DNA from: Minisyncoccota bacterium
GTDB lineage: Bacteria; Patescibacteriota; Minisyncoccia; UBA6257; UBA9933
Reading direction: 5' to 3'
NCBI GenBank assembly: GCA_041653755.1
Contig: JBAZEU010000004.1
Span: forward strand, 1 to 42,305
DNA: 42,305 nt
In this document: positions 6,950-37,565 of the stretch, in pieces
How the letters are laid out: every line of letters begins with the position of its first letter
How positions within the stretch are numbered: position 1 is the first letter of the stretch
Program-made: the position numbers and the translations under genes
Notes under the pieces: generated by a model
What the model was told of the DNA's origin: nothing
Databases searched by the model: none
The model's input: only the letters and a program-made list of their open reading frames with translations

Positions 6950-7614
6950 AAAATCTTTTTAACATAATTCTCTTCAATCCGCTTTTAAATGCTCTGCTGT
7001 TTTTCTACCAGCATTTTCATGATTTAGGGTTAGCGATTATTCTTTTAACTATTATCGTCCGGCTGATCCTTCTTCCGTTTTTCTATAAGGGCGCCAAAGA
7101 TCAGACGATTATGCAGCGGCTTGCGCCAAAAATAAAAGAGATTCAAAAAACCCATAAAGATAATTTGAACAACCAGACGCAAGAATTGATGAAGCTCTAT
7201 AAAGAACATCGGGTTAATCCTTTGTCGAGTATGCTTTTGTTGATTATCCAATTACCGATTCTTATCGCCCTTTATCAAGTTCTTTTGCATGGCGTTCAGA
7301 AAATAGCCGTTAATCCTTTGTTTTTGAATTGGATTAACCTGACAAAACCGAGTATATTTATTATAGTGATAACGGCGATAGCGTCGTTTTATCAGGGGAT
7401 AATTTCTCTGCCTAAAATCGCGAAAGACAAGGTTTTAAGCCCCACAGACAAGATGAGCAGGAATATGATCTTAATGTCGCCGATGTTCACAGTTGTGATT
7501 CTTTTGTTCTTGCCCTCGGCTCTCGGTTTATATATTCTAGTTAGCGCTGTGTTCTCGATAGTTCAGCAGTTATTCATTAATAAAACATTAAAAGATAAAA
7601 ATCTTCCTGCATAA
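6946..7614 (+). CDS. yidC: Membrane protein insertase YidC/Oxa1 family (short form)
   Basis: ATGA overlap with rnpA. Multi-TM 222-aa protein with the YidC-type loop KEIQKTHKDN...ELMKLYKEHRVNP. Conserved rnpA-yidC-jag synteny. Confidence 0.85.
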   Translation: MKNLFNIILFNPLLNALLFFYQHFHDLGLAIILLTIIVRLILLPFFYKGAKDQTIMQRLAPKIKEIQKTHKDNLNNQTQELMKLYKEHRVNPLSSMLLLIIQLPILIALYQVLLHGVQKIAVNPLFLNWINLTKPSIFIIVITAIASFYQGIISLPKIAKDKVLSPTDKMSRNMILMSPMFTVVILLFLPSALGLYILVSAVFSIVQQLFINKTLKDKNLPA

Positions 7615-7696
7615 GCAAGAAGATTTGTATATAAAATGAATTTTTTATAGAATTTTTTAATTAAATTATATATAAAATTTATAAAATAAATTTTTT

Positions 7697-8125
7697 ATGG
7701 ATTGGTTACAGGAGATTCTAACAAAATTAATTAAGTTGATGGGTTTTGAAGATTTTTCAATAAACTACGATCCCGATCGAAGCCGTTTTATGATTTTCAT
7801 TAATAATCTGGATTCTGAAGAATTAACTTGGCGTTTAATTAATGATTTAAATCATTTAGCGAAAACATTAACAAAGAAGCAAAATCAACAGTCGGTGTTT
7901 ATCGACATCAATAATTATCGGGAAAAAAGAGAAGGATTGATTATCGAACTGGCACGAGCCACCGCCAGAAAGGTGGTAGCGACTAAAACAGAATTAACTT
8001 TGCCTTTTATGAATGCCTACGAAAGGAGATTGATCCATCTAGAGTTGTCCTCTAGGCCAGACGTTAAAACAGAAAGTATTGGCGAGGGCAAAGAAAGGAA
8101 ACTCATTATTAAGCCGATAGATTAA
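7697..8125 (+). CDS. khpB: Jag/KhpB-like R3H RNA-binding protein
   Basis: C-terminal R3H motif MNAYERRLIHLEL. Follows yidC as in most bacteria. Confidence 0.75.
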   Translation: MDWLQEILTKLIKLMGFEDFSINYDPDRSRFMIFINNLDSEELTWRLINDLNHLAKTLTKKQNQQSVFIDINNYREKREGLIIELARATARKVVATKTELTLPFMNAYERRLIHLELSSRPDVKTESIGEGKERKLIIKPID

Positions 8126-8154
8126 AAAACGCTTTCTTGAAGAAAGCGTTTTTT
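8124..8154. terminator. Bidirectional intrinsic terminator
   Basis: Perfect palindrome AAAAAACGCTTTCTT-G-AAGAAAGCGTTTTTT between convergent genes, with A-run and T-run flanks. Confidence 0.7.
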
Positions 8155-8165
8155 AATTACGATCC

Positions 8166-9260
8166 CTACAAAGCAAACTGATAGAGTTTGTTATCGTAGC
8201 GATTAATAAATATCAAAGAATTTCCAACTTTTGTTAACCTAGAAATATCTATGGGCGCATCAGCGCTCGTGGCGAAAATTTCTTCTGGCTCGTTAGCGCC
8301 ATTAATATCAATCTTATAAATAGAATCATTAAAGTAAACGGCTTTCTTTAAATAGTCATCTGGTAGGTTGATGGCGCCTATTGGCAGGCTTTGGCTGGTT
8401 GCGATAGCGCAATAGAGCAAAGAATCGGCAATGGCGCATTTATCTGGAAGAGTATAGAAATTTAGCGTTGTCTCTTGGCTGTTTTTATCAATTAAAGACA
8501 TTGCTAATTTCTGTTGGTTAGCGGCTAATTTAATTCCTTGGTTTTTATTTTTTTGCCAGTTTATCATTAAGCCGTCTCCCGAAGAAAACAATTTTGCTGA
8601 TTTATCTTTTAAGTTGATTATCCATGCTTCTCCTTTTGTTTGGCTCGATGGTTGTGGGAGTAAAAGCACATTGTCTTTATCTATCCATGAGAGGTCAAAA
8701 TCCTTTTGCGCTAAAGACATAACCGTTGTTGTCTTTTGTTTTGCTTTTGTCGCAAGGTCTTTAATAACCAGATTGCTATTTCCTGACTTAGTGTTGACTA
8801 GGTAAATTATTTTTTGTTCAATTGGTGACCAGTCAGCTGCGGTTATTCCGAGATCTAACGGTTGCCAAACTTTTCTGGAGAGATCGAAGATGTTAAAAGT
8901 AGACGAGGAGAAACTGCCGGATTTTATTAATATCTTTGAGCCATCGCTAGATGCTTTTATTGATTGGAGATTATTGATCGTTTGGCCGCTGATTTCTTCG
9001 TTTTGCTCGCCAGCTTTGAATATTTTTCCATCCAAAGCAATATAAGATATTTCGGTTGTGGTTGTTGAGGTGTTTGCCCAGTAACCAAAAACTTCTTTAT
9101 CGCTTATAGGATTAATTTTTTCTTTTAATAATTCTTCGGCAGTGGGCGAAGGCGTTTTGGTTGGATTCAAATATGGCTTGGCTTTTTGCCAGCCAAAATA
9201 AACTCCAACTCCAAGAGCTAAGAAAGCGACTATTATTATGATGGGCGTTATTTTTCTCAT
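8166..9260 (-). CDS. Membrane-anchored hypothetical protein, possibly beta-propeller-like (last gene of T4SS-like locus)
   Basis: Track ORF 8166-9293. The internal ATG at 9260 gives MRKITPIIIIVAFLALGVGVYFGW (N-terminal TM) and removes a 22-nt overlap with the upstream gene. The remainder is beta-rich and repetitive; no specific family recognised. Confidence 0.6.
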   Translation of the reverse strand: MRKITPIIIIVAFLALGVGVYFGWQKAKPYLNPTKTPSPTAEELLKEKINPISDKEVFGYWANTSTTTTEISYIALDGKIFKAGEQNEEISGQTINNLQSIKASSDGSKILIKSGSFSSSTFNIFDLSRKVWQPLDLGITAADWSPIEQKIIYLVNTKSGNSNLVIKDLATKAKQKTTTVMSLAQKDFDLSWIDKDNVLLLPQPSSQTKGEAWIINLKDKSAKLFSSGDGLMINWQKNKNQGIKLAANQQKLAMSLIDKNSQETTLNFYTLPDKCAIADSLLYCAIATSQSLPIGAINLPDDYLKKAVYFNDSIYKIDINGANEPEEIFATSADAPIDISRLTKVGNSLIFINRYDNKLYQFAL

Positions 9261-9271
9261 AAAAATTTGTT

Positions 9272-10156
9272 TTAAGGTATGACTACGTCCCAATGGAATC
9301 CTCCATTTGTTTGCGACTCCAAATTATATATCGCTCCCGAAGAACAGCGGTAGCGCTCTTTATAGACAGAGCTTGTCCCAGATAACTTAGCACAATTGTT
9401 TAAGATATATGTCGAAAGGTCAGACCCGGCAGTAGCGGGCTGTAGGTCTACTTTATAGCCGTTAGCGTGGCTGTATACGCCTTGTGCATGTCCGGTTTGC
9501 TCACATCCTCCAGTTAGCGTGATCGGACAATCTTGCGTTCCATGGTGGATAGCGTTTTGACAGTGTTTAGCTAAGTCGCCTAATTCGTTTATTGTGTTTT
9601 GTCTTAAGCAGCTGACCTTAGTGCAACCGGGGCAGGATTCCCAAACAGTAATTCCCCATGAAGCTAATTTACTGCGAATCTGTTGCTCGGTGAGAGAAGT
9701 AGCGGGGTTGGTGGTATCAATTAATTCTCCTGTGGAGGAGGCGGTAATAATAGTACCGAAAGAAGGTTCTTCTAGTTTAATTAAATCCGGGTTAATAGTA
9801 TTTAAGATTAAAAATGCTGCTAAGAGCAGAATTACCCCCCAAAGAGCTTGTGTAATTCTATCTCTGGCATCTTTCTGACGAGTCGGATCGCCAGCTGACA
9901 TTGAATATTGAATACCGCCGAAAACAATTATTCCTAAAGCCAAGACACCGACTAGGCCTAATGTGATTAGATAAATTTGCTTTATCAGGGCGCCAAGGCC
10001 AGTTGCATTGGACCATGGGAAGCTGAAAGTTTGTCCTACAGAAGTTTGACCAGTGGTTTGTTCGGCCGCTTTTACAGAAATGAAACAAACCAAAGATAAT
10101 AAGGATAAGAAGATTATACTTAAAATAAAAATATTTTTTGTCTTTTTGAAGTTCAT
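9272..10156 (-). CDS. VirB2/TrbC-like 'T4SS pilin' domain fused to a Cys-rich putative LAS/M15-type peptidoglycan peptidase domain
   Basis: Signal peptide plus two TM helices flanking the motif FGGIQYSMSAGDPTRQKDARDRI, shared with the three pilins at 34.5-35.8 kb. C-terminal half has TGGCEQTGHAQGVYSHANGYKVD (SxHxxGxAxD-like spacing) and GGFHWDV (terminal His). Confidence 0.55.
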   Translation of the reverse strand: MNFKKTKNIFILSIIFLSLLSLVCFISVKAAEQTTGQTSVGQTFSFPWSNATGLGALIKQIYLITLGLVGVLALGIIVFGGIQYSMSAGDPTRQKDARDRITQALWGVILLLAAFLILNTINPDLIKLEEPSFGTIITASSTGELIDTTNPATSLTEQQIRSKLASWGITVWESCPGCTKVSCLRQNTINELGDLAKHCQNAIHHGTQDCPITLTGGCEQTGHAQGVYSHANGYKVDLQPATAGSDLSTYILNNCAKLSGTSSVYKERYRCSSGAIYNLESQTNGGFHWDVVIP

Positions 10157-10177
10157 TTTATATATAATTAATAAATT

Positions 10178-10882
10178 CTATTGAACTGTTAATTTTAAAT
10201 TTTTTGCGGCTGATTCAATGCTTTGCAGAGTGTTTGAAATAGATGCGCTGATATTAAGAGTCAACCCGCTCGGCGTGGAGGTGCCTACGTTAAGATTTAA
10301 AATATCTGGGCCTGTTTCGTTTTCTTCGAGAGAAGCGGCTTGGTTGTTCACGGCCCAGCCAAAAGAAAAGTCATTCAAAGATAGCGCATTAAAGAAAAAC
10401 GGGAGAGCTTCAAGATGATAGCTGCCGCCTATCTTTACTTTTTGTGTTAAATAAGGGGAATTGATTATTGCTTCGGGATTTTTAACGGGGATATAAATAA
10501 ATTTATTCAATTCTTCCCCTTTATAGTTAACGACAGCAATCCGTATTGAGATATTTGTGCCAGCCTGATTCTTTGGAATAAACCTAATATTTTTTAGCCC
10601 AGTTCCCTTGGTGAAGAGTGAATCGTTAATATACCAACGAATTTCTTTTGCGGAAATATTTGCTATTTGATTATTGTCGATTAGCTCGAAAGACACGTCT
10701 ATGGGGGTTGAATAAATTGGGAATGCTTTACCCTGATACCAGTCGGGGGTATAGCTATAGGCTTTCCAAGAGGATAAAAACTGAGGCGTGGAAGTAGCGT
10801 TGACAGAATCAAAAATTAGGAAAGAGAAAAGGATGAGCATCAGACAAAGCGTAAAATTGAGTTTTAAATTATTATTTTTCAT
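10178..10882 (-). CDS. Secreted hypothetical protein (beta-sandwich-like)
   Basis: N-terminal signal-like hydrophobic segment (LCLMLILFSFLIFDSVNA), beta-rich. ATGA overlap with the upstream gene. Confidence 0.6.
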   Translation of the reverse strand: MKNNNLKLNFTLCLMLILFSFLIFDSVNATSTPQFLSSWKAYSYTPDWYQGKAFPIYSTPIDVSFELIDNNQIANISAKEIRWYINDSLFTKGTGLKNIRFIPKNQAGTNISIRIAVVNYKGEELNKFIYIPVKNPEAIINSPYLTQKVKIGGSYHLEALPFFFNALSLNDFSFGWAVNNQAASLEENETGPDILNLNVGTSTPSGLTLNISASISNTLQSIESAAKNLKLTVQ

Positions 10883-11334
10883 TTTTTGGAGTTATTAGGC
10901 ATGGTCATTTGAGCTACTCTTGCTGCGGTTTGAACGATCTTTGCTTGGGGAATAGGAATTAATGATGTTGCCACTTCAGTTGCTTTTAGCGCTGTTTTAA
11001 CTATTCGTGGATGATTCATCACGAAAATGACTATGAACAAACAAAAGGTTCGCATCGGGAGAATATTAATGACTGGGATAAATTTCAGCAAGTTGGCGAC
11101 AATCAATAAAGTGCCCCAAAGCCCACCGATCCTTCTTATTATAAGCCACGTAACTATTACAAGCAAAACAATTATAGCGAGTATCAACTCTAAGGCCAAA
11201 AAAACAGGCATAAGAGCAATTGTTGTCGAGAGTAGATTTGCTACAATGTCAAAAAAGTCAGCTCCACCACAAATCAAAACCATTATGATTGTTTCTGGTA
11301 ATGAAATTTTTTGTTGGTTTTGATTTTCCTCCAT
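10879..11334 (-). CDS. Small polytopic membrane protein (about 4 TM), T4SS-locus component
   Basis: Start taken at ATG 11334 (MEENQNQQKISLPET...), 4 nt after the virB4 stop. The track ORF extends to 11406 inside virB4. Four hydrophobic helices. Confidence 0.6.
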   Translation of the reverse strand: MEENQNQQKISLPETIIMVLICGGADFFDIVANLLSTTIALMPVFLALELILAIIVLLVIVTWLIIRRIGGLWGTLLIVANLLKFIPVINILPMRTFCLFIVIFVMNHPRIVKTALKATEVATSLIPIPQAKIVQTAARVAQMTMPNNSKK

Positions 11335-11338
11335 ATTT

Positions 11339-13093
11339 TTATATTTGTTTTTCTTCCCGCTGCTCCAATAATTGAGCCGGACTAGTGGTAATAATCTGGT
11401 CTTCAAAATAAGAAGCGATTACCTGGATAGCGACATGCTTTAAGCCGGCGAAGAATAATCCTTCTCCAATCGCTGCCTCAAGGAGTAATGATTTTTCCGC
11501 TTCGGTTAGATTAAAAGTTTTTTGGACCAGATCAATTGTTGCCGGTGATTGTTTGAGGAGTAGAGCCAAAGTGGAGTTGGTGATAATTGGTTTGCCATAA
11601 GGCGAGCTTAAGAAATCTTCTACATCTTGAGTGATAGTAGTCACGCCCAAGAAATATTTTCTGGCTCTCTTTACCAAAGAGAATAAGAATGATGCGCTGT
11701 CCGGATATTTCATCATCCACCATGCTTCATCAATCACTAAAATTCTTTGTTTCAACTCGACCCGGATCAAGTTCCAGATGAAATTTAAAACAACATACAT
11801 TGCGATCGGTCGAAGCTCGTCTTCGAGATCTCTGATCGAGAAAACAACTAAGCGGTTGTTGACGTCGACAGAAGTGGGTTTGTTGGCAAAGCCGGCATAA
11901 CTGCCTTTAGTGAATTTATATAATCTTTCAGCTAATCCCCGACCGCCCTCCATGCTTTGCAATATGGTTTGAAAATCTTCCAGAAGCGGCGGAGGAATTT
12001 TAGCGAAGTCCTCTCTCTCCGGAGTTATATTGCGGGAAGTGTATGTTTCAGAAAGCGCTCGATCTAATAAGGCCTCTTCTTCGGCAGTCATTTCGCCAAG
12101 CATCAATTTTAACAAGCCAGTTAAGTTTACGATGTGCGATCTGAATCCTTCTGTCGGCGATTCGCCTTGCGGAACTGGCGGGATATCAAAAGGATTAATG
12201 GAATTTTTAGAGGTTAAAGAGATATTGATAAAGCTTCCGCCAACCGCTTCGGCTAGCTTTTGATATTCGTTCTCCGGATCGATTACTAAGACATCAACCC
12301 CAAGCATCAAAGACCTTAGGATTTCAAGCTTGGTGGCGTAGGATTTACCGGCGCCAGCCATAGCGAATACAACCTTATTAGCATTTTCTAAAGAGAACCT
12401 GTCAAAAATTATTAAGCTGTTATTTTGACGATTAATACCATGGAGCACTCCTTCGTCAGAAGTTAAATCAGTTGAAATAAACGGGAAGAACGAAGAGGTC
12501 GGGCCGGAATTAAGCGGAGTATGTATTAATAATTTATCTTGAGCCAAAGGCAGAGTTGATTGGTATCCTTCGAGCTGTTGGAAGAGAGCTGGCTTCACGT
12601 AGACCAAATGTTCTTCAAAAAGCGAAGTGATTTTATTCTCAAGCTTTGTTAGTTCTTCTAACGTGCTTGCGTACATGGTCAGATAAATACCGACATTGAA
12701 CAATCGTTCTTGGGCCTGTTGAAGAGTGTCGCGTAGTCCTTCAACGTCCTGGAAAGCGGTTTCAAGCAGCGGGTCTCTCACCAATCCTTTTTCATCTCGT
12801 TCCATCAATTGAGCTTGAATTTGAGTAGCCTTTTTTCGGAGGTTCCTTAGGGCCAACGAGGTGTCAACCGGATGAACGAAAATTGAAACATCCATCAAAT
12901 TCGGGAAATTGATAATCGAATTAAACCAGCCAACCGAAAGGTAGCGAGGATAAGTAAAGACGAAAACGCTTTTGATAAAGAAATCGCCAGTTCTTAAATA
13001 TCCCGGGCTGACTTCAAGCGCGGCTGGAGCAATAACGTCTTTTACGTCTTTAGATGAAGCGGTATAGGTTTGTGGTATTTTTATTTTGTTCAT
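11339..13093 (-). CDS. virB4: VirB4/TrbE-family type IV secretion ATPase (C-terminal 584-aa portion)
   Basis: Walker A FAMAGAGKSYATK and Walker B ILVIDEAWWMM. N-terminal region IAPAALEVSPGYLRTGDFFIKSVFVFTYPRYLSVGW is typical of Gram-positive-type VirB4. Confidence 0.85.
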   Translation of the reverse strand: MNKIKIPQTYTASSKDVKDVIAPAALEVSPGYLRTGDFFIKSVFVFTYPRYLSVGWFNSIINFPNLMDVSIFVHPVDTSLALRNLRKKATQIQAQLMERDEKGLVRDPLLETAFQDVEGLRDTLQQAQERLFNVGIYLTMYASTLEELTKLENKITSLFEEHLVYVKPALFQQLEGYQSTLPLAQDKLLIHTPLNSGPTSSFFPFISTDLTSDEGVLHGINRQNNSLIIFDRFSLENANKVVFAMAGAGKSYATKLEILRSLMLGVDVLVIDPENEYQKLAEAVGGSFINISLTSKNSINPFDIPPVPQGESPTEGFRSHIVNLTGLLKLMLGEMTAEEEALLDRALSETYTSRNITPEREDFAKIPPPLLEDFQTILQSMEGGRGLAERLYKFTKGSYAGFANKPTSVDVNNRLVVFSIRDLEDELRPIAMYVVLNFIWNLIRVELKQRILVIDEAWWMMKYPDSASFLFSLVKRARKYFLGVTTITQDVEDFLSSPYGKPIITNSTLALLLKQSPATIDLVQKTFNLTEAEKSLLLEAAIGEGLFFAGLKHVAIQVIASYFEDQIITTSPAQLLEQREEKQI

Positions 13094-13108
13094 AGAATAT
13101 GAAATATT

Positions 13109-13768
13109 TTATCCATTCGTTTCTTTCGCAATTTCCAGACCTTTTTTCTTCGCCGAAGGATTATAAAGGTTATAGAAAAGCTCGATCAGTTCTTCGTCGT
13201 TCAACGGGACAGCGCGTAAACCGATTTGCGCCAAACCTTGAAGTGTTTGATCAGTTCGCTGATCAAGCTGGCGAATTTTTTCTTCTAGTGTTTGATTAAT
13301 TGGTTGATTTTGACTGACCATTTGTCCGCCGCTCTTTAAAAGCTGGAAAGCTTTTTGTCCGCCCTTGGGTATTTGGGAAATATCATAGGGAATAATGACA
13401 AAAAAAGTTTTTGTCATTATTTCGTTTTCGGCGACGAAAGAATTAATAAATTGGCGATATTCGCTGATTTGGTTTTTTAAGAGCTCGTTAGTTTCTATTT
13501 CTTCTTTCTCCGCTAGTTTTTCGAGATACGATTCGATGTTCAGCTTTCGGGAATGAATAATTATCTGAGTCGAAAAATCTAAGGAATTTAAAAAGTTTTG
13601 ATAAGCAAAAATAATCGAGCTTTGTTCTTCCTCCGATTTGAGATCAAAATTAAGACCAGCCACCATCAATACCCGGCGTAAACCGCCATTCTTTAAAATT
13701 ACAACGCCGTCTTTAATCTCTTCGATATCGACAAATTGTTGCGTAGATTTTGAAATTTGTTTAGGCAT
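13109..13768 (-). CDS. VirB4 N-terminal-domain-like protein (219 aa), in frame with downstream virB4
   Basis: FVDIEEIKDGVVILKNGGLRRVLMVAGLNFDLKSEEEQSSIIFAYQNFLNSL resembles the extreme N-terminus of ~800-aa Gram-positive VirB4 ATPases (recalled pattern, not searched). Ends TAA at 13109-13111, in the same frame as ATG 13093. Confidence 0.5.
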   Translation of the reverse strand: MPKQISKSTQQFVDIEEIKDGVVILKNGGLRRVLMVAGLNFDLKSEEEQSSIIFAYQNFLNSLDFSTQIIIHSRKLNIESYLEKLAEKEEIETNELLKNQISEYRQFINSFVAENEIMTKTFFVIIPYDISQIPKGGQKAFQLLKSGGQMVSQNQPINQTLEEKIRQLDQRTDQTLQGLAQIGLRAVPLNDEELIELFYNLYNPSAKKKGLEIAKETNG

Positions 13769-13774
13769 ATGTTT

Positions 13775-14311
13775 TTATCGATAGTCCACTCTCCTGGCGG
13801 CTTCTTTTTGGCCGGAAAGTTTTCTGAATAATTCGAATCTTTCGGTTGATTTGACTGCCGGTGCGATTGTCCTTTCTCTTTTCGGCAGAGGATTTTTGGT
13901 AGTCGCAAGGTCTCGCCAAAGGTTTTTAATGTCTGGCATTTCAGAAAAAAAGTTTTTAAGAGATTCTCTCTTTATAACAACATTTTGCTCTTTGACTTCT
14001 CTGGTTTCTGGCAGAATGATTTCTTTGGTAATTTCTTCTCTTTGCCAGAGATAAAGCCGGGGATTTGTGAAGAAATTTATGGCGGAAACAACAACTTTTA
14101 TCAGCGGTTGGCCGTTAACTTTTATAAAGGCGAAAGCCATGGCAGCAACTATTAAAATCATAGCAATTATAATCCAAAGCCAAAACTTTAAGACGAAGAA
14201 AAGCGCAAAGCATAAAGCGCCGGCAGCGGCAAAAAACAGAAATTGTTTGATGGTTAGCGGCCCTACGATTTTATCCTCTGTCTCGATAAATTGCGGAACT
14301 TGGAATTGCAT
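13775..14311 (-). CDS. PrgI-family (VirB3-like) membrane protein
   Basis: MQFQVPQFIETEDKIVGPLTIKQFLFFAAAGAL followed by two TM helices is the PrgI-family signature. Sits immediately upstream of VirB4, as in Gram-positive T4SS. Confidence 0.65.
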   Translation of the reverse strand: MQFQVPQFIETEDKIVGPLTIKQFLFFAAAGALCFALFFVLKFWLWIIIAMILIVAAMAFAFIKVNGQPLIKVVVSAINFFTNPRLYLWQREEITKEIILPETREVKEQNVVIKRESLKNFFSEMPDIKNLWRDLATTKNPLPKRERTIAPAVKSTERFELFRKLSGQKEAARRVDYR

Positions 14312-15510
14312 TATTTTCGTAAATCAATAATAGTTTCGTCTTTGCCTGCCTGCCGGTAGGCAGGGGTTTTTTCGACCTCGGTTTTTATTTTTACTTTTTG
14401 AAGATCTACTAAGTCGATCATTTCTTCATCTTTTGTGATAGTCGCTACGGTCGGTTCTTTATCTTTTGCTGGTTCAGGTGGTTTAGGCAGGGCAACAACT
14501 GGTGGCAATTGTTGAGGCGGCTTAGGAAGTTCTATTGGGATAACAGTTGGAATAGGTTGTCTTGGCGGCGTGATAGGCGCTTTGGGAACTATCGGTAAAG
14601 TCGTTATTGTTTTAGCTTGCATTGGGGAAAGATTTTTTTCTTCAGGATATGTTTTCGGCGATGGAGGAATTGGTGTGACAGAAATAATTTTCGGCTTAAA
14701 AGATGGAGGCGGCGTTGGAGTGATAGGTTTCTGCCCAACGAACATTTTTGGCCCTCCGTCTGTCTGATCGGTTTGTTTCTGGGGTTCAAATTGAGTGTAA
14801 TGGACTACTTTAAATGTTGGCGCTCCGGTTTTAGCTACGGTTGGTTTTTCTTGCGGTCTTTGCGTTGGTGTCTCAATTTCAGCAATAATTTTTTCTTTGG
14901 AAGCTGTTTCTTTCCTTCTAGAGAAACCAAATAGTCCTCCTAGTGTTGGCTTTCTTTTCTCTGTGGTTATTGGGGTGGCTGACGCAATTGTTTCTGATTT
15001 GAATAAAATTGCCGGACCTTCTTCTGGCGCTGGTGGCATTGATGGTGTTAGTGGCTTCGGTTCCTCTTTTGGTTCTTGGCTTTTCGGTTGTTCGGATGGT
15101 CGTAGGTCTACTGGCGGTATGGAACTTTTCATTTCTTGCCGAGATATCGTTGGCGGAGTGGTTTGCTTTGATTCTTCTGTTGGCGGTAGAGGCGAATAAT
15201 TTTTTTCGATTTCTTCTTTTAACGGAGAGAAAATTCTTTTTCCAATATCTTTTGCAACGTTATCGGCAACCTTATAGTTAAGCCCTGTTATTTCTTGGAT
15301 TTCTTTCGCCATGTCTTCGGAATGTAAAAATCCTAAAAGTACTTCTCCTGTAACCATTGCCACATCGTCAACCCATTCTTTCTTTAGATAGTTGGTCTGG
15401 CAAACAGTATTAATTAGACTATAAATAGCTGTTGAATTCAGAATGTTGCTTATCTTTTCTGGAAGATTCTTAGCTCTTTTAACGATTTCTCCTTCGGGTA
15501 TGAAAAGCAT
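14311..15510 (-). CDS. Proline-rich hypothetical protein (globular ~110-aa N-domain + long P/T/K/E low-complexity region)
   Basis: 399-aa ORF with TAATG 1-nt overlap with the PrgI-like gene. No TM seen. Contains an in-frame GC hairpin near its 3' end. Confidence 0.6.
   Translation of the reverse strand: MLFIPEGEIVKRAKNLPEKISNILNSTAIYSLINTVCQTNYLKKEWVDDVAMVTGEVLLGFLHSEDMAKEIQEITGLNYKVADNVAKDIGKRIFSPLKEEIEKNYSPLPPTEESKQTTPPTISRQEMKSSIPPVDLRPSEQPKSQEPKEEPKPLTPSMPPAPEEGPAILFKSETIASATPITTEKRKPTLGGLFGFSRRKETASKEKIIAEIETPTQRPQEKPTVAKTGAPTFKVVHYTQFEPQKQTDQTDGGPKMFVGQKPITPTPPPSFKPKIISVTPIPPSPKTYPEEKNLSPMQAKTITTLPIVPKAPITPPRQPIPTVIPIELPKPPQQLPPVVALPKPPEPAKDKEPTVATITKDEEMIDLVDLQKVKIKTEVEKTPAYRQAGKDETIIDLRK
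14345..14364. repeat. GC-rich palindrome CCTGCC-TGCCGGTA-GGCAGG inside coding sequence
   Basis: Encodes PAYRQAG in frame, 11 codons before the stop of the proline-rich gene. Sharply GC-rich versus its flanks. Confidence 0.5.
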
Positions 15511-15516
15511 AGGATT

Positions 15517-16860
15517 TTATTTTTTGCCTTTTGGCATAAGATTTTTTATGAACTTTTGTCCTTCTTTCGTTGTGAGATGATAACGCATCCTTTCCGTAAT
15601 GGAGCCCATTAAGGTTGGCGGGGTGCTAATCGGGGACGACCCTCCAAAAGTTGTTGCTCGGCGATAAGCGCCAGTTATCCCTTGGCCGATTGCTCTTGTG
15701 AAGCGATTGTTACCTTGGCTTGCCATCCTGGCGGTTTGGTTTGCTATTGGTCCGGTTGCTCTTGTAGCTCCTCGAGCAGCTAACCTAGACATCCAGAGTG
15801 CAGTTCCTGCCCCAACTCCAATCCCTGCGGCCATGGTTATCCCTAAAATTTTATCTGCACCCTTGATCCCTATCATATTGGCGATTATAAGCCCGCCCAA
15901 TAGTAGACCCGTAAAAATAAAGTAATTCCCAATAGTAGCCCATGGAGAGGCGAAAGCGGACCCGACGTTAGTAAATCCTTGCGCACCTCCTTTATACCCC
16001 GCAGTAAGGGCGAAAGAAATAAAAAGCATCATAACTGGAGCAAAGAAAATCCATCTTAGAAAATGAGTCCACCATTTTTTCCATAGATCTATTGTCGCCG
16101 GGAAAATAGAACAAAGCCAAGCTAACGGCGACAATACGACTAGAATACCAACGACCACATATCTGATAAGCAACATAATAATGATGCCGATCATAGTTAG
16201 TAAAAGAATTACCATACAAACTAGCGAAAAAATCGGGGCAGCTATGCCCGTCGCTACCACATTGCCAGTTTCTTTTATTATCCCAACAAGCGCTCCTTCT
16301 TGTCCTCCTATGTTATTTATCCCAGAGAGATTTAATATTGTATTCCCAATTTCATCTATCTTGGTGTCTCCCAAGATTGCTTTCGTGGCTATATTGGAAA
16401 TGTCGCCGATAGCAGCGCAAATCATTAAGCTGAAATTGACTAAAAGAGCGGCAACGATTAATTTTGTTAAGGTTTTTTTGAAACCATAGTTTTCCATTCT
16501 TAGAATCGTGCCAAAAGCAACGACGATAATAGCCAAAACAAATCCTAAATTAGCGATGTCTCTGGCTTTTTGCCAAGCTCCATATATATAAGAATTACTA
16601 GGGTTGAATATCTCGTTGTTTATGTTAATAGCAAAACCTAAAAATCCTGCAAAAATTTTGGAAATTACCCAGATAATCGGTTTCGCTACAACTGTAATGA
16701 AAATATTAGTTGCGCCTACTAGTGCATTTTTGGTAACTTCTCCCAGCGAAAATAAAGCAGCAGAAGCTTTATGTGGGCTAACAGCGTAAATTATCGTTAT
16801 CCCGAACACCAGGACGATTACGACAAGAAGAAATAAATTTTTGTATTTCTTAGTCATCAT
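15517..16860 (-). CDS. Polytopic membrane protein, VirB6/TrbL-like candidate
   Basis: 447 aa with a signal-like N-terminus and at least 6 hydrophobic helices plus a basic C-terminal tail. Size, topology and position in a VirB4 locus fit VirB6 analogues. No sequence motif verified. Confidence 0.45.
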   Translation of the reverse strand: MMTKKYKNLFLLVVIVLVFGITIIYAVSPHKASAALFSLGEVTKNALVGATNIFITVVAKPIIWVISKIFAGFLGFAININNEIFNPSNSYIYGAWQKARDIANLGFVLAIIVVAFGTILRMENYGFKKTLTKLIVAALLVNFSLMICAAIGDISNIATKAILGDTKIDEIGNTILNLSGINNIGGQEGALVGIIKETGNVVATGIAAPIFSLVCMVILLLTMIGIIIMLLIRYVVVGILVVLSPLAWLCSIFPATIDLWKKWWTHFLRWIFFAPVMMLFISFALTAGYKGGAQGFTNVGSAFASPWATIGNYFIFTGLLLGGLIIANMIGIKGADKILGITMAAGIGVGAGTALWMSRLAARGATRATGPIANQTARMASQGNNRFTRAIGQGITGAYRRATTFGGSSPISTPPTLMGSITERMRYHLTTKEGQKFIKNLMPKGKK

Positions 16861-18137
16861 TAGATGATGCTACATCGTTGTTGGGTGAATTGTAGTTGTC
16901 GAAGTTCTTGCTGGGCGGCATCTATGTCGTCATTTGTAAGGAAATTTTGATAGACGTCCCCGTTATTCACAATAAAGCTGTTATAGTCATTTTGCGCTTT
17001 TTGTTGATCTGCCGGAGTAGTTGCGCTTTGAGCCTCGTTAAGAATAAAACTAAGCTGGCTGACTGTGCTTTGGATAACGGCGATTTCTTGAGTCAAGGAA
17101 GCAACTTTTGCTGCGGCTTCAGTGCCATTAGAACAACGGCTCGCAACTATGGCATTCGCTGCGCTAAGCGATTGCTGCTTAATATTCAAAAGACTATTTT
17201 CGTGATTTAGAAGGCCTTGTGTGTCACTAATAAGCTGAGCTAGCAATTGTGATGAGGTACTGGAAGATTGTTCTGACCACCCGCTACCGCTAGCTGAAAT
17301 AGTGGTTCCTCCTGAAGAAGAGCTTAAACCCATTTGATCCAAACCACCTTGTATGAATCGATTGATTAAAGCATTTGCGAGAGCGGAAAAAGGCGATTCA
17401 ACATTGCTTATAAAATCAAAATTTATCGTTAGAGCTTTTGAGACCACGTCTTTAATCGATTGCCCTGGAGTGGCTATTATTTCTCGTATACAATCTCCAG
17501 CGTCGCTCGTCTCTAAACATTTTTTTGCAGAAAGATATCCTTGACCGGCGACGGCTTCGTTTTGGGCGGCGTCAGCCTTAGCTGTTCCTCTGGTTGTCAT
17601 TTCATCTTTGATTAAAGCTACGGCACCATAAAGGTTGTTTTGGGGTTCAAAAACATTACCGCCGGAATCCAATGTACATTTTATTTTTTCTGCGAAACCA
17701 TCAGTACTTGGGTTCGAGTTATCCGACAATGACATGCCTAATGTTCGTTGCAAATCATCTCTAAACTCTGGACAAATATAATCAGCCGGAATTTCTTGCC
17801 AAGCTTCGTTTTCTCCTCTTGCGTATGCTTGATTTGAATAACTTTCCCAATTTGTGACAAATTGCGGTGAGCCGTCTCCCTGAATCCAATGAATTACTTG
17901 GTCAGAGAGCAGGTTTAATATCTCGTGAACAACTGCATCACGAAATCCTTGAGTGGCGAAATCCTTTGCCCACTGTAGGACATTAGACACTGTTTGTGCG
18001 ATATTGGTGTGTATAAGCGCAGGGTCAATAACAACATATTGTGCATGTGCTTTTTGAGGTACCAATGTTATTGCAGAGGAAATGATTAATACGACGACGA
18101 TAAAAGTAGAAAAAGATTTTTTAAAATATTCGTTCAT
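16860..18137 (-). CDS. Secreted hypothetical protein, possible VirB5/TrbJ-like
   Basis: Signal peptide (...LVPQKAHA|QYVVIDPALIHTNIAQTV). The mature N-terminus resembles the TrbJ/VirB5 start. Ser-rich linker and helical C-terminus. TAATG overlap with the VirB6-like gene. Confidence 0.35.
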   Translation of the reverse strand: MNEYFKKSFSTFIVVVLIISSAITLVPQKAHAQYVVIDPALIHTNIAQTVSNVLQWAKDFATQGFRDAVVHEILNLLSDQVIHWIQGDGSPQFVTNWESYSNQAYARGENEAWQEIPADYICPEFRDDLQRTLGMSLSDNSNPSTDGFAEKIKCTLDSGGNVFEPQNNLYGAVALIKDEMTTRGTAKADAAQNEAVAGQGYLSAKKCLETSDAGDCIREIIATPGQSIKDVVSKALTINFDFISNVESPFSALANALINRFIQGGLDQMGLSSSSGGTTISASGSGWSEQSSSTSSQLLAQLISDTQGLLNHENSLLNIKQQSLSAANAIVASRCSNGTEAAAKVASLTQEIAVIQSTVSQLSFILNEAQSATTPADQQKAQNDYNSFIVNNGDVYQNFLTNDDIDAAQQELRQLQFTQQRCSII

Positions 18138-18176
18138 ATTTTTTTATAGCGAAATTTTATTTCGATATAACCTTGG

Positions 18177-19016
18177 TTATAGACCGACACTTTTAGCTTT
18201 TAAGTTTATAATAGTTTGGATATCTAAACCGGTTTTTAACAATTGGTTGATAGCATTGAAAGCTAAATAGGCCTTCAATGGATCCGATTGTATGTTTCCT
18301 ATCGCTCCATAAATAATCTTAGCATTTTGATAATAAGTAAGTAAGTCCTTATGAGAAGATAGCCATGCATAAGGGGCGGGGGTGGTTAAAAGTTTGTCAT
18401 AAGAACAAGCATAGGCGTCAGAAAAGTTTTTTGCCAAAGTTCCGTCTTTTCTTTCGAAAGCGTTTGATAATGCTTGGGTAGCGCTATCGTTGACTTGAGC
18501 AAAACAATTGATGGCGATATCTCGAAGGTTTTGGAGATATTCTTTTTTAATGCTTGGTGCGTTGGAATAATTGATTTTCAATATTTTTTCGTCAATTGCT
18601 TGATTAAGCGGGAGGTAATCTTTGGTGTTTATATCTTTCAAGGCGGCATCAGAAATTTGCTGTTGATCAGAAGACAAATTCTGGCCTGTTTTGTAATTTA
18701 ATAAATCGCCGCTCGCTCCTAGAATCTTTGAAGCCATATCTTTTGTAAGAGCTTGAGTAAGATTTTGGTCTGAAAGATCGGTTGATGAAGTCGAAGCAGG
18801 GTTTTTGGTAAAAAAATTCTTAATGGATTCTATGCTTAGGTTTGACAAAGGGTTATTTGGGTTGTTCCAAAAAGAATTTGGATTTTGAGCGGAAGTTATT
18901 GGTTTTATATCGCTTCTAAACACAAACCAGCAGCCTATAAGTAAAATTGCCGCTATGATGAAAAAAACACTAAGTTTTAGCGGGTTCATTGACTTTATTA
19001 TACAGAAAATGCGCAA
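18177..19016 (-). CDS. Membrane-anchored hypothetical protein (first gene of T4SS-like locus)
   Basis: ORF abuts the rsmA stop (19017). An alternative start at 18989 gives MNPLKLSVFFIIAAILLIGCWFV (TM anchor). No family recognised. Confidence 0.55.
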   Translation of the reverse strand: MRIFCIIKSMNPLKLSVFFIIAAILLIGCWFVFRSDIKPITSAQNPNSFWNNPNNPLSNLSIESIKNFFTKNPASTSSTDLSDQNLTQALTKDMASKILGASGDLLNYKTGQNLSSDQQQISDAALKDINTKDYLPLNQAIDEKILKINYSNAPSIKKEYLQNLRDIAINCFAQVNDSATQALSNAFERKDGTLAKNFSDAYACSYDKLLTTPAPYAWLSSHKDLLTYYQNAKIIYGAIGNIQSDPLKAYLAFNAINQLLKTGLDIQTIINLKAKSVGL

Positions 19017-19832
19017 TTAAAACAAAGTGGATAACGCTGTCAATTGATTAATTGACAGGTTTTGGGGCCGAGAACCTGGATCGATACCAGCTTTTTTCAA
19101 TATTTCTTCTATAGCAAGTTTACTTGATATATCGAAACGAAGTTTTGATATTTCTGGTTTATTCTTTTCGGTGCCCGCGGAAAGATTGTTTAAAATCGTT
19201 TTCCTTGGTTGCTTAAAAATAATCTTTATTAGTTTGTAGTACTCAGTTTGTAGTTCGTAGTCTATAAAAGAACAAGGAGTTAATTTGATGATTGCGGAAT
19301 TGACTTTTGGCTGGGGCTGGAAAGCGGCTTTCGGGATATAGTCAATAATTTCCGGTTTGGCCCAGAATTGGATAGAGGCGGCCAGAAGATTCATTCCGTC
19401 CTTTCCCATAATCCTTTCCGCGACTTCTTTTTGGATGGTGAAAACGATTATCTCTGGCTTTGGCTCCAAATCGGCAATAATTCTAAAAAGATAGCCGGTT
19501 ATATAATAAGGTATGTTACCGACCAACTTGTATCCTGGATCATGAATCTTAAATCTTGAAACGATTTGCGGTAGAACCTTTAAGGCGTCTCCTTGGATAA
19601 CCTCAATTTTATCGTCTGATTTATGATCCAAGATCCATGATGCAAGACGCGGGTCTTTTTCAATCGTGATAATTCTGCATTCGGAATTTTTAGCCCTTAA
19701 CTCTCTGGTTAGTTCTCCGTGCCCTGGGCCAATTTCAACAATAAAATCGCCTTTTTCAATTTTTAGGGCTTCAACGATCTTTTCTAAAGAATCCTTATCT
19801 TTTAAGAAATGTTGACCAAGTCTTTGCGGCAT
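19017..19832 (-). CDS. rsmA: 16S rRNA (adenine1518/1519-N6)-dimethyltransferase RsmA/KsgA
   Basis: MPQRLGQHFLKD..., SAM motif VEIGPGHGELT, GNIPYYIT. Confidence 0.9.
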   Translation of the reverse strand: MPQRLGQHFLKDKDSLEKIVEALKIEKGDFIVEIGPGHGELTRELRAKNSECRIITIEKDPRLASWILDHKSDDKIEVIQGDALKVLPQIVSRFKIHDPGYKLVGNIPYYITGYLFRIIADLEPKPEIIVFTIQKEVAERIMGKDGMNLLAASIQFWAKPEIIDYIPKAAFQPQPKVNSAIIKLTPCSFIDYELQTEYYKLIKIIFKQPRKTILNNLSAGTEKNKPEISKLRFDISSKLAIEEILKKAGIDPGSRPQNLSINQLTALSTLF

Positions 19833-19842
19833 AGGCTGAAAT

Positions 19843-20937
19843 ATGATACGATATAGACCTATTATTACTTATTTGAAAAGCTTATTAAAGCCCTTGGGGC
19901 ATCTCTCAAAAACCAACAAAATCCTCATTGGGGCAGTTTTTGCTATTTTGGCAGCTAATTTTACATTAATAAAACAGCCAGTTTTGCTCTCAACCGTACT
20001 TTCAAAGCAAGAAATTCAGCCCGGTGGTCCGATAACCACAGCTAATTTAGTGGCAGTTTTTGACACAAAGGCTACCGAGAATAAAGATTTTGGAGTTTCT
20101 AATACCGGTCTTAACGGTTTTAGCGTAGCCGAAAGCGACGAAGAATTAGCGGGGTTTGCCTTAGTGGAGGACTCCGCTTTTTTGAGCTCGAGCGGTCCCC
20201 TTAAGAACATCTTAACTAAAAAAGAAAACTTGATGATTTATAAGGTTCAATCAGGCGACACTATTTCAAAAGTTGCTGAAAATTTTGGGATTTCAGTCAA
20301 CACGCTTATTTGGGCTAACAGTTCTTTATCTAATCGTTCGCTCACCCCAGGCCAGGAAATTATTCTTCTGCCGGTTTCAGGGGTTATTTACAAAGTCGTC
20401 AGCGGCGATACATTGGAATCAATCGCCAAGCTTTATAAGGTTGATGTTGAAAAAATTAAACAATATAACGATGTTTCTTCCGGTTTAGCGGCTGGCACCA
20501 CCTTAGTGATACCAGGCGCTAAGCCATCGACGAAGACAATAGCCGATACGTCAGCTTATTCTGGCCTGCCAAAAGTTTCCGGATATTTTACTATGCCTAC
20601 TACTGGTTGGAATTGGGGCCGTTTGCACGCGACAAATGCTGTTGATATCGCTAATAGTTGCGGTACGCCAATCTTTGCCGCAGCCGAAGGATTGGTGATG
20701 GAGGTTGATAGCAACGGTTATAATGGCGGTTATGGAAATTATTTGAAGATAGAACATTCTAACGGCACAAAAACTTTATATGCTCATGCCAGTAAAATTT
20801 TTGTCACTCAAGGACAAATGGTTCAAAAGGGAGAATTAATCGCTAATATAGGTAATACCGGAAACACGCATGGTTATACCGGCTGTCATCTTCATTTTGA
20901 AGTTTACGGCGCTCAAAATCCCTTTGCTAAATATTAG
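19843..20937 (+). CDS. LysM-repeat M23 family peptidoglycan endopeptidase
   Basis: TM anchor. Two LysM repeats (YKVQSGDTISKVAENFGISVNTLIWAN; YKVVSGDTLESIAKLYKVDVEKIKQYN). M23 motifs GNYLKIEHSNG...YAHAS and GCHLHFEV. Confidence 0.9.
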   Translation: MIRYRPIITYLKSLLKPLGHLSKTNKILIGAVFAILAANFTLIKQPVLLSTVLSKQEIQPGGPITTANLVAVFDTKATENKDFGVSNTGLNGFSVAESDEELAGFALVEDSAFLSSSGPLKNILTKKENLMIYKVQSGDTISKVAENFGISVNTLIWANSSLSNRSLTPGQEIILLPVSGVIYKVVSGDTLESIAKLYKVDVEKIKQYNDVSSGLAAGTTLVIPGAKPSTKTIADTSAYSGLPKVSGYFTMPTTGWNWGRLHATNAVDIANSCGTPIFAAAEGLVMEVDSNGYNGGYGNYLKIEHSNGTKTLYAHASKIFVTQGQMVQKGELIANIGNTGNTHGYTGCHLHFEVYGAQNPFAKY

Positions 20938-26649: not shown

Positions 26650-26687
26650 AATAGTTTTTTGTTTTAGCTAAGCGCGCAAAATTCTAG

Positions 26688-26759
26688 TGGGCGCACTTGG
26701 ATTCGAACCAAGAACCTTGGCCTTATAAGAGCCCTGCTCCGCCATTGAGCTATGCGCCC
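26688..26759 (-). tRNA. tRNA with UAU anticodon (predicted tRNA-Ile, AUA-decoding)
   Basis: Reverse complement GGGCGCATAGCTCAATGGCGGAGCAGGGCTCTTATAAGGCCAAGGTTCTTGGTTCGAATCCAAGTGCGCCCA. Perfect acceptor, D and T arms. Anticodon loop C-U-UAU-A-A. The anticodon stem has a G:A mismatch and a U:G pair. Confidence 0.75.
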
Positions 26760-34549: not shown

Positions 34550-34962
34550 AAAAAATAATTTCAATCCCAGTTCTTTTTTCCGCTTTATATCTTTTGCTTT
34601 CTACTCCGGTTTTTGCTGCCGGTTTAGTTCCTTGTAGCGGAGCCGATTGCACTTTTAATTGTTTCATGAAGATGTTTCATGATATTCTCTATAACTTGGT
34701 TTTGTTGAAAATCGTTATTCCTTTGGTCGTGGTTACGATTGTTTGGGGAGGTTTTATGATGATGTTTTCTGCTGGAGATCCTAAAAAAGCCGAAACCGGC
34801 AAAAAAATTATTACCAGCGCCGTAGTTGGAGCAGTTATTGTTTTTTGCGGCTGGCTGATCGTTAATCTTCTTTTTTCTGTATTGGTGAAGCCGAGCGCTT
34901 TAAGCCAAAGTCCACTGCTGGAAGGAAGTCATTGGTATAACGTAAGAATCAGTTGTCCTTGA
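34546..34962 (+). CDS. VirB2/TrbC-like T4SS pilin paralogue 1
   Basis: Signal peptide (...STPVFA|AG). TM1-WGGFMMMFSAGDPKKAETGKKIITSAVVGAVIV-TM2. Confidence 0.65.
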   Translation: MKKIISIPVLFSALYLLLSTPVFAAGLVPCSGADCTFNCFMKMFHDILYNLVLLKIVIPLVVVTIVWGGFMMMFSAGDPKKAETGKKIITSAVVGAVIVFCGWLIVNLLFSVLVKPSALSQSPLLEGSHWYNVRISCP

Positions 34963-34992
34963 TTTTAGAATTAAAACAATTAGAATTTTATT

Positions 34993-37483: not shown

Positions 37484-37565
37484 GCTCCCGTGGCGGAATT
37501 GGAATACGCGCAGCGCTTAGGACGCTGTCCCGCAAGGGTTAGAGGTTCGAGTCCTCTCGGGAGCA
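37484..37565 (+). tRNA. tRNA-Leu (anticodon UAG), class II with long variable arm
   Basis: GCTCCCGTGGCGGAATTGGAATACGCGCAGCGCTTAGGACGCTGTCCCGCAAGGGTTAGAGGTTCGAGTCCTCTCGGGAGCA. Anticodon stem CAGCG/CGCTG, loop CT-TAG-GA, variable arm CCC-GCAA-GGG. Confidence 0.9.

Follow-up and report, generated by a model that had tools for sequence, protein, structure and literature searches.

What does a Patescibacteria cell do with a type IV secretion system (T4SS) that is encoded apart from any recognisable relaxase or coupling protein? Such systems are present in ~80% of Patescibacteria genomes, no other T4SS is known to be essential to the cell that carries it, and their role is a question for a quarter of bacterial diversity. 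The 42,305-nt metagenomic contig JBAZEU010000004.1, assigned to a Minisyncoccota bacterium and referred to here in its entirety as the window, carries an example of this kind, a run of eleven open reading frames (ORFs) on the minus strand at 8166-19016. Statements of absence made below apply to these 42 kb of the genome. We conclude that the locus is very probably an intact, relaxase-less Patescibacteria T4SS operon that serves contact-dependent exchange with a host cell. It is a monoderm, MPF-FATA-derived machine in which the link to conjugation has been lost.

The encoded parts comprise a core of PrgI, TrsD, VirB4 and a VirB6-like protein, at least one pilin in the operon and two elsewhere, a tethered putative zinc peptidase, and four further surface-exposed proteins (a TolB-like propeller, an immunoglobulin (Ig)-like protein, a Cys-rich/coiled-coil protein and an anchored helical protein). 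Neither the locus nor its neighbourhood gave a match to an outer-membrane core. The search for missing functions covered every sizeable ORF in the contig with Pfam and ten of the eleven operon proteins (all except the 375-aa protein) with NCBIfam.

Operon layout and the energy and channel core

All eleven ORFs described in the initial annotation of the window are present in its ORF listing (Table 1), and the translational coupling ascribed to them can be read from the sequence. Neighbouring genes overlap by 1 nt in a TAATG at 16860 (425-aa and 447-aa genes) and at 14311 (399-aa and PrgI genes), and by 4 nt in an ATGA at 10879-10882 (151-aa and 234-aa genes), while the remaining gaps are 39, 6, 6, 15, 4, 21, and 11 nt long. 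These values assume ATG starts in place of three upstream TTG starts chosen by the ORF tool. For the 270-aa and 151-aa genes, the same ATG starts were obtained in an independent gene call on an identical contig; for the 364-aa gene, the start is based on an ortholog alignment in which M12 is nearly invariant. As had also been described, the locus runs on from ksgA (rsmA; RrnaAD match, 4e-41), the stop codon of which abuts the first ORF at 19016/19017.

Table 1. Features of the T4SS operon, listed in the direction of transcription, and the additional pilin genes of the window.
Feature	Position (nt)	Strand	Remarks
N-terminally anchored protein, 270 aa (279 aa from TTG at 19016), helix-rich ectodomain	18177..18989	-	first gene after ksgA
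Secreted 425-aa protein with signal peptide, Cys-conserved globular part and C-terminal helical/coiled-coil part	16860..18137	-	translationally coupled to the VirB6-like gene
VirB6/TrbL-like polytopic membrane protein, 447 aa	15517..16860	-	TrbL_3, orthologue TrbL matches, hydrophobic segments
399-aa protein without transmembrane segment	14311..15510	-	~105-aa helical N-domain and variable proline-rich tail
PrgI/VirB3-like small membrane protein, 178 aa	13775..14311	-	Pfam PrgI PF12666
TrsD/TraD-like protein (free VirB4 N-terminal domain), 219 aa	13109..13768	-	NCBIfam TrsD 5.6e-10
VirB4 ATPase, MPF-FATA (CD1110) type, 584 aa	11339..13093	-	NCBIfam, Pfam
Small polytopic membrane protein, 151 aa (ORF reaches TTG at 11406), 3-4 hydrophobic segments	10879..11334	-	fast-evolving
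Secreted or anchored 234-aa protein	10178..10882	-	N-terminal hydrophobic segment
Fusion of VirB2-like pilin and putative LAS-type zinc hydrolase, 294 aa	9272..10156	-	Pfam, NCBIfam, AlphaFold2, profiles
T4SS pilin domain (residues 53-121)	9794-10000	-	within the fusion protein
Predicted Hedgehog/DD-peptidase-fold (LAS, M15-like) domain (residues ~150-294)	9275-9709	-	joined to the pilin by a disordered linker
N-terminally anchored 364-aa protein (ORF reaches TTG at 9293, 375 aa), TolB-like beta-propeller ectodomain	8166..9260	-	last operon gene
Inverted repeat	8121-8157	.	perfect 18+18 nt, 1-nt loop, 100% complementary, A/T runs on both sides
Additional T4SS pilin gene, 138 aa	34546..34962	+	Pfam T4SS_pilin 5.3e-11, TrbC/VirB2 6e-4
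Second additional T4SS pilin gene, 127 aa	34993..35376	+	Pfam T4SS_pilin 7.7e-11; in tandem with the first

Directly after the last operon gene lies a hairpin that probably serves as an intrinsic terminator for both the operon and the convergent jag gene beyond it. Inside the locus, matches to promoter-like and terminator-like consensus sequences occur at the level of shuffled sequences, and this hairpin alone is convincing. A single transcription unit from ksgA onward is plausible from this layout. The GC content of the locus is the same as that of its flanks. Proteins identical to those of the window were also found on a 19.8-kb contig of sequencing run SRR18595300.

The firmest member of the core is the VirB4 ATPase, which matches the NCBIfam model conju_CD1110 (5.3e-109, 365.5 bits against a curated cutoff of 325) and Pfam P-loop_TraG (1.1e-25), and in which the Walker A (AGAGKS) and Walker B (VIDEAW) motifs are intact in the translation. 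The recognition of VirB4 in the initial annotation thus stood, although not as a single gene, for the 584-aa ATPase is preceded by a separate 219-aa TrsD-like protein. The latter also aligns with the N-terminal ~100-230 positions of the VirB4 models CD1110, VirB4_CagE, and Mbov_0397, and is labelled TraC-like (PF26593) in another Pfam release. The operon counts eleven ORFs because “VirB4” is two genes.

The TrsD-like and VirB4 ORFs are parted by an in-frame TAA and 15 nt. A nonsense mutation and programmed readthrough were both considered as the cause of this split, and rejected with the help of related loci. For this, one genome per species was scanned and the best 80 loci were taken, of which 72 were informative for gene order. 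TrsD is a separate ORF in 79 of the 80, and because relatives differ in the frame that it occupies with respect to virB4, neither readthrough nor a recent nonsense mutation explains the arrangement. The split is ancestral.

PrgI, directly upstream of the TrsD-like gene, was recognised as stated originally (PF12666, 1.4e-11, 45.2 bits against a gathering score of 27), and is present in 78 of the 80 loci. The polytopic 447-aa protein, earlier called VirB6-like, has roughly 7-8 hydrophobic segments and a weak precomputed match to TrbL_3 (PF19590), a family recorded for many of the 120 homologues listed. Among 30 orthologues, two match TrbL (PF04610) at 1.3e-7 and one matches TrbL_4. A VirB6/TrbL-like nature is therefore moderately supported at the level of sequence families. 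The protein is the shortest of its family, in which orthologues are 459-1033 aa long and carry long hydrophilic C-terminal extensions (“extended VirB6”) that are mostly missing in the window. The possibility that the 447-aa and 399-aa proteins are the two halves of a split extended VirB6 was rejected, because relatives with a long VirB6-like protein still have an orthologue of the 399-aa protein.

Conservation, flanking genes and missing conjugation functions

A comparison of gene order across Patescibacteria, proposed together with the initial annotation, shows how regular the arrangement is. All 80 loci belong to Patescibacteria, mostly labelled Paceibacteria, Parcubacteria or Wolfebacteria, and their VirB4 proteins are 58-87% identical to that of the window, the nearest relatives of which appear, among these best 80 genome matches, to be Patescibacteria VirB4s. 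The order ksgA-T4SS-jag-yidC-rnpA-dnaA-dnaN, in the same orientation, was observed in 70 of the 72 informative loci, with a median distance of 5.2 kb between virB4 and dnaA. VirB4 identity tracks dnaA identity (Spearman 0.73). This arrangement is far beyond chance. Because gene order is collinear and VirB4 diverges together with dnaA, the locus is best read as a vertically inherited core operon of monoderm-conjugation ancestry, and not as a mobile element.

Profile searches of the contig gave no match to a coupling protein, a relaxase, VirB8-11 or a second secretion ATPase, and VirB4 is the only secretion ATPase matched. Likewise, no type IV coupling protein (T4CP), relaxase or VirB8-11 was found among the flanking genes scanned in six orthologous loci, which are housekeeping genes only. 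None of the anchored operon proteins gave a sequence or profile match to the VirB8-like NTF2 fold. A search for oriT-like repeats in 7600-20100 returned only low-identity AT-rich matches and nothing distinctive, in line with the original reading of the sequence. The absence of VirD4, relaxase and VirB8-11 that had been claimed thus stands for the contig, but it does not extend to the genome, as VirD4-like genes are found elsewhere in most Patescibacteria genomes (PMC12102498). Because neither the contig nor the scanned flanks gave a match to these functions, the locus does not appear to be a conjugation module, as the initial annotation had held.

On one side, the operon is flanked by dnaN, dnaA, rpmH, rnpA, yidC, and jag, and on the other by ksgA, a divergent LysM/M23 peptidase gene, and comM. 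The peptidase gene (19843-20937, +) is divergent from ksgA, adjoins the T4SS operon, and encodes two LysM domains and a Peptidase_M23 domain. A tblastn match to it lies between ksgA and either comM or the locus edge in six related loci. M23 and LysM domains have been noted among VirB1-type matches (PMC12102498), and the T4SS may use the protein as a second wall enzyme. The comM gene is 2.45 kb from the operon, with ksgA, the peptidase gene and a small ORF in between, and its neighbourhood is conserved in at least five loci. In three distant loci (L025, L029, and L055) a UvrD/PcrA-type helicase gene stands upstream of ksgA in place of the M23 peptidase gene. These helicases were considered as possible relaxases or T4CPs and rejected as ordinary UvrD/PcrA helicases. 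Other extra flanking genes in distant loci encode surface proteins, and not T4CPs or relaxases.

Neither an integrase nor an att site was found flanking the T4SS locus. The sole recombinase on the contig lies 18 kb from it, beyond ftsH, gyrA, and other housekeeping genes. This is a large serine recombinase (37539-39113, -), the 3' end of whose gene is overlapped by a tRNA-Leu(tag) at 37484-37566, and which is followed by helix-turn-helix and zinc-ribbon/tetratricopeptide-repeat proteins up to the contig end (42305). The segment 37484-42305 may have arisen by integration of an element at the tRNA.

Two further observations concern the surroundings of the operon. Between yidC and jag, an AT-rich segment (7625-7720) contains three copies of a direct repeat of ~41 nt with 25-nt spacing, together with palindromic TATATA elements, and a related AT-rich segment is located at 10143-10185, in the gap between the 234-aa gene and the pilin gene. 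These repeats could be promoter or origin-associated sequences. A gene for tRNA-Ile with the anticodon TAT, which reads AUA directly, was found at 26687-26759 (-). Such a tRNA is unusual in those bacteria that rely on TilS-modified tRNA-Ile(CAT).

Pilin-peptidase fusion and other surface proteins

The penultimate gene of the operon had been described as a VirB2-like pilin domain fused to a hydrolase, and both halves were borne out. The pilin domain matches Pfam T4SS_pilin (30.9 bits, gathering score 26.6) and the NCBIfam Mbov_0395 pilin-like family (6e-9). The C-terminal 145 residues have no Pfam match. In an AlphaFold2 model of the fusion protein (35 homologues; predicted local distance difference test, pLDDT, 80) they form a compact alpha/beta domain, the best domain-level matches of which in a Foldseek comparison with PDB are Hedgehog N-domains, including Sonic hedgehog (probability ≤ 0.99, TM ~ 0.46, E 0.04). 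When the sequence profile of this domain was compared with PDB, Hedgehog N-domains were the sole family matched (E 0.007), and the alignment places H-x6-D and the last histidine on the residues that bind zinc in that fold. The putative zinc ligands are H230, D237 (H-x6-D), and H288, the last two being invariant in 15 family members; one of the 15 matches Pfam Peptidase_M15_3 (0.014). Zinc-dependent D-Ala-D-Ala and cell-wall peptidases adopt the Hedgehog/DD-peptidase (LAS) fold. With the predicted zinc triad placed on the modelled fold, the assignment of the C-terminal domain to LAS zinc peptidases of the Hedgehog/DD-peptidase fold is supported, and its activity is putative.

This architecture is widespread. 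The C-terminal domain was found in 388 cluster representatives of a library of 1.84 billion proteins, and the pilin domain accompanies it in 91 of the best 148. Other homologues of the operon pilin carry a YkuD, SLT or NlpC/P60 domain in place of the LAS domain. Judged from these domain combinations, an interchangeable, pilin-anchored peptidoglycan enzyme would be a recurrent feature at this position of the locus, and the pilin-tethered hydrolase is a candidate VirB1-type cell-wall enzyme. The widespread fusion and its domain-swapped relatives are modestly new with respect to published work.

The two additional pilin genes are arranged in tandem, the first of them 15.5 kb from the operon, and their products are 24% (138 aa) and 21% (127 aa) identical to the operon pilin domain. 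Their divergence matches that of the divergent “VirB2 arrays” of PMC12102498. The pair forms part of a stretch at 33272-35376 (+) that begins, after gyrA, with a gene for a solute-binding protein (SBP_bac_8/SBP_bac_1, 425 aa), the stop codon of which overlaps the start of the 138-aa pilin gene by 4 nt. No adjacent gene for an ABC permease or ATPase accompanies this orphan solute-binding protein.

Five operon proteins had been listed as matching nothing recognisable, and this was upheld for three of them, while the other two could be given a likely fold. For the last gene of the operon, already suspected to be propeller-like, a family profile built from 28 orthologues matches the TolB propeller in PDB (E 3e-9); the protein has a single hydrophobic segment and is present in 41-46 of the 80 loci. 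The profile of the 234-aa family (31 orthologues) matches Ig-like domains of phage T4 Hoc (E 2.8e-4), with no Pfam match, and the protein probably consists of two Ig-like beta domains, on evidence that is weak. An hhalign comparison of this family with the protein encoded after the hydrolase on a C. perfringens plasmid gave no signal, although a single-sequence template makes this a weak test.

The three proteins that match nothing are the anchored 270-aa (279-aa) protein, the 399-aa protein and the small 151-aa protein, earlier counted as having four transmembrane segments. No match was found in Pfam, NCBIfam or PHROGs for any of them, nor in a PDB profile search for the first two, and PHROGs gave nothing for all eight unassigned operon proteins scanned. 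The 270-aa protein has a single N-terminal hydrophobic segment. Its orthologues were detected by BLAST in 4 of the 80 loci, and a similar-sized gene occupies the same position in more distant loci. In the same way, BLAST orthologues of the 151-aa protein occur in 8-11 loci and positional equivalents in others. An alignment of 28 orthologues of the 399-aa protein shows a conserved N-domain and short conserved motifs in the proline-rich tail, which is probably disordered.

The suggestion that the secreted 425-aa protein resembles VirB5 or TrbJ could not be confirmed. Its only family match, to DUF4141, is below threshold (E 6.6e-6, 25.8 bits, gathering score 30). The AlphaFold2 model is poor (pLDDT 60.6), and the top Foldseek matches are designed or generic helical bundles, with no VirB5 or TraC among them. 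The PDB profile search gave coiled-coil noise only, and the homologue search yielded 14 sequences. A link with T4SSs is nevertheless reasonable, because DUF4141 proteins adjoin traJ, near traG, in Bacteroides conjugative transposons. The protein has conserved cysteines and was found in 28-32 of the 80 loci. All extracytoplasmic proteins of the operon have Sec-type N-termini.

Proposed role of the machine and comparison with known systems

In the mechanism that we propose, TrsD and VirB4, docked on PrgI and the VirB6-like protein, would power the building of an extracellular tube or stalk made of pilins. By analogy with the topology of VirB2, the C-terminal peptidase would be outside the membrane, where it could do the job of VirB1 by opening peptidoglycan of the cell's own wall and possibly of the host's. 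The propeller, Ig-like and coiled-coil proteins would build or target the contact site. The machine would then exchange macromolecules, in a contact-dependent manner, with the host cell that carries the epibiont, and would not transfer plasmids.

Several points weigh against this reading. Function is extrapolated from one species of Saccharibacteria, not of Paceibacteria, and pilus formation by these pilins is hypothetical. No family could be assigned to five of the eleven operon proteins. The peptidase assignment is based on two matches, from Foldseek (E 0.04) and hmmsearch (E 0.007), that agree but are each weak. The VirB6-like assignment is weak for this particular protein, which gave no match at E ≤ 1 in a direct hmmscan; an hhalign comparison of its family profile with one 264-aa protein encoded upstream of PrgI on the C. 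perfringens plasmid gave no signal, again a weak test with a single-sequence template. Finally, a VirD4-like gene may be located elsewhere in the genome, of which 42 kb were covered.

The direction of transport is not decided by sequence, and we assign roughly one third of our expectation to import and roughly one third to export. Reviews likewise treat the role of the T4SS in Patescibacteria as still a guess, with effector delivery or import of DNA or other macromolecules proposed (PMC12102498; PMC12857230). Export, in which proteins such as effectors or hydrolases would be sent into the host bacterium or onto its surface so that it leaks or is held fast, in the manner of effector-translocating T4SSs, is a serious possibility that falls short of an even chance. 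VirD4 would not be needed for substrate recruitment, as in Bordetella Ptl and Brucella VirB, and T4SSs without a coupling protein are known to export proteins (PMC12102498). Given the missing relaxase and T4CP, protein export or an alternative role is favoured by Wang et al. (PMC10633639), and several products of the locus itself are secreted or exposed at the surface, with a tethered putative peptidase that could act on the host wall. However, no effector candidate or secretion signal was identified in it, and the extracytoplasmic operon proteins, with their Sec-type N-termini, do not need the T4SS to leave the cell.

Import, in the manner of archaeal Ced or Helicobacter pylori ComB, is an alternative of nearly equal standing, likewise short of an even chance. 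Here, a cell unable to make nucleotides would take up DNA or other nucleotide-containing macromolecules, from the host cell or from the environment, through an apparatus with VirB4 only and a VirB2-like pilus. T4CP and relaxase, the two functions that went undetected on the contig, are dispensable for an importer on the recipient side. VirB4 is of the MPF-FATA type, a clade that also holds archaeal systems (PMC12102498), and it has a weak partial match to CedB (1.9e-7). Southlakia can do without comEC (PMC12857230) but not without the T4SS, which calls for an uptake route other than comEC. The proximity of comM, in a neighbourhood conserved among loci, points the same way, but ComM is a widespread recombination helicase, and its gene is parted from the operon by ksgA, the divergent peptidase gene and the small ORF. 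In addition, the locus has no recognisable DNA-binding or nuclease component, the CedB match reaches 30 bits where the cutoff is 700, and import has already been put forward in print.

In a more specific form of import, the enzymes (the Hedgehog-fold domain here, its YkuD, SLT or NlpC/P60 cousins at the same position in other loci) would be more than housekeeping substitutes for VirB1: incorporated into, or carried by, the pilus, they would be presented to the host wall, opening a port through which macromolecules enter. We consider this improbable. If true, a monoderm would have an import-type T4SS with a wall-cutting enzyme displayed on its pilus.

That the locus is an ordinary conjugation apparatus, its relaxase, coupling protein and oriT being elsewhere in the genome or too divergent to recognise, is very unlikely. 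The 42 kb covered leave room for such genes, the closest VirB4s outside the Candidate Phyla Radiation (among the records listed) are on monoderm conjugative elements, and most Patescibacteria genomes have VirD4-like/T4CP genes, mostly far from virB4 (PMC12102498). A few genomes also have relaxases, but these are only 103 of 3,035, against 2,417 with VirB4 (PMC12102498). The conserved position in the origin region among housekeeping genes in 70 of 72 species, the co-divergence with dnaA, and the lack of a flanking integrase or att site all speak against a conjugative element. Moreover, the T4CP homologue of Southlakia is not essential whereas other T4SS genes are (PMC12102498). A decaying remnant of an ancient integrated conjugative element, its VirB4 broken by a stop codon, would account for the in-frame TAA and the many missing canonical parts, but it is scarcely credible in view of eleven intact ORFs, conserved Walker motifs and zinc ligands, a TrsD that is a recognised family split from VirB4 in differing frames in 79 of 80 species, and a gene order kept down to 58% VirB4 identity.

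H. pylori ComB and archaeal Ced are possible functional analogues, as they depend on VirB4, use VirB2-like subunits and need no relaxase or coupling protein in the importing cell. ComB has a diderm core of ComB7/9/10 (VirB7/9/10) together with ComB8, none of which was matched in the window, and the similarity to Ced is limited to a 75-residue fragment of CedB and a CedD score of 14.8. On these matches, membership in either group cannot be claimed for the window locus.

A different likeness connects the locus with the integrative and conjugative element (ICE) of Mycoplasma. The window PrgI, TrsD, and VirB4 match consecutive segments (23-129, 101-233, and 289-893) of the single Mbov_0397 polypeptide, so gene order in the window equals domain order in that protein, and the pilin domain matches the Mbov_0395 family as described above. 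Scores are far below the family cutoffs (e.g. 279 vs 590 bits), and the Mycoplasma system, unlike the window locus, is conjugative and carried on an ICE.

Conjugative MPF-FATA systems of monoderms (C. difficile CTn2/CD1110, pGO1/pIP501 Trs/Tra, and pCF10 Prg) share with the window a VirB4 above the CD1110 cutoff, PrgI directly upstream, and a wall hydrolase downstream of virB4, and pGO1/pIP501 also have a TrsD-type protein. In the records listed, the nearest VirB4s encoded by plasmids all come from monoderms and share 30-36% identity with that of the window. As an illustration, a C. perfringens plasmid with a CD1110-family VirB4 carries MobC, relaxase, and VirD4 genes directly upstream of PrgI-VirB4 (MobC and relaxase 5-7 kb upstream of VirB4) and an SLT hydrolase gene downstream. 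Conjugative systems thus differ from the window in having MobC, relaxase and VirD4 genes by the channel genes, and in being located on plasmids or ICEs; neither a relaxase or oriT, nor a VirD4/TcpA-type ATPase, nor carriage by a plasmid or ICE was found for the window locus on the 42-kb contig. To our knowledge, conjugative MPF-FATA systems of monoderms are generally without VirB2-like pilins.

The only member of this T4SS group with experimental data is that of Southlakia epibionticum ML1, a cluster of 14 genes (SEML1_0006-0019) that is reported, from transposon sequencing, as essential for epibiotic growth (Wang et al. 2023, PMC10633639). That cluster, too, is without recognisable coupling and relaxase proteins, and its pilin array is essential (PMC10633639). 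The core order VirB6-like ... PrgI - TrsD-like - VirB4 is the same as in the window, pilins are encoded, and the cluster is near the chromosome start. In Southlakia, six small pilins form an array beside the core, where the window has one operon pilin fused to a peptidase domain and two free pilins 15 kb away, and the VirB6-like proteins are much larger (~1000 aa). Southlakia also has an NTF2/VirB8-like protein, SEML1_0012, which is non-essential (PMC10633639), whereas no VirB8-like protein was detectable in the window.

The closest correspondence is with the Patescibacteria-clade T4SS in its Paceibacteria layout. VirB4 was reported in 2,417 of 3,035 Patescibacteria genomes, as a clade nested in MPF-FATA, with TrsD, PrgI/VirB3, VirB6, and VirB2-like pilins encoded close to virB4 (Quinonero-Coronel et al. 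2025, PMC12102498). In Paceibacteria, the T4SS adjoins dnaA, dnaN, rnpA, ksgA, and rpmH (PMC12102498). The window shares each of these parts, including the MPF-FATA VirB4 and adjacent TrsD, as well as the position beside the same genes and the lack of a relaxase or T4CP near virB4, and no essential difference was found. The initial annotation had put the locus forward as an undescribed system, a claim that has to be given up, since the machinery, its missing parts and the origin-proximal site in Paceibacteria were already in PMC10633639 (2023) and PMC12102498 (2025), and the ideas of ComB-like DNA uptake and host contact are likewise in the literature. To the account in PMC12102498 we add the pilin-LAS fusion, the TolB-like propeller, the Ig-like protein and the conserved eleven-gene order, which are not described in those parts of that paper that were available to us. 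The published picture is unchanged, and the window locus is a clean, complete Paceibacteria example that agrees with it. Its value is that of a reference locus annotated gene by gene, including the TrsD/VirB4 split, a pilin-peptidase fusion that at least 91 sequence clusters share, surface parts of TolB-like and Ig-like type, and five conserved proteins without family that are listed for structural or genetic work.

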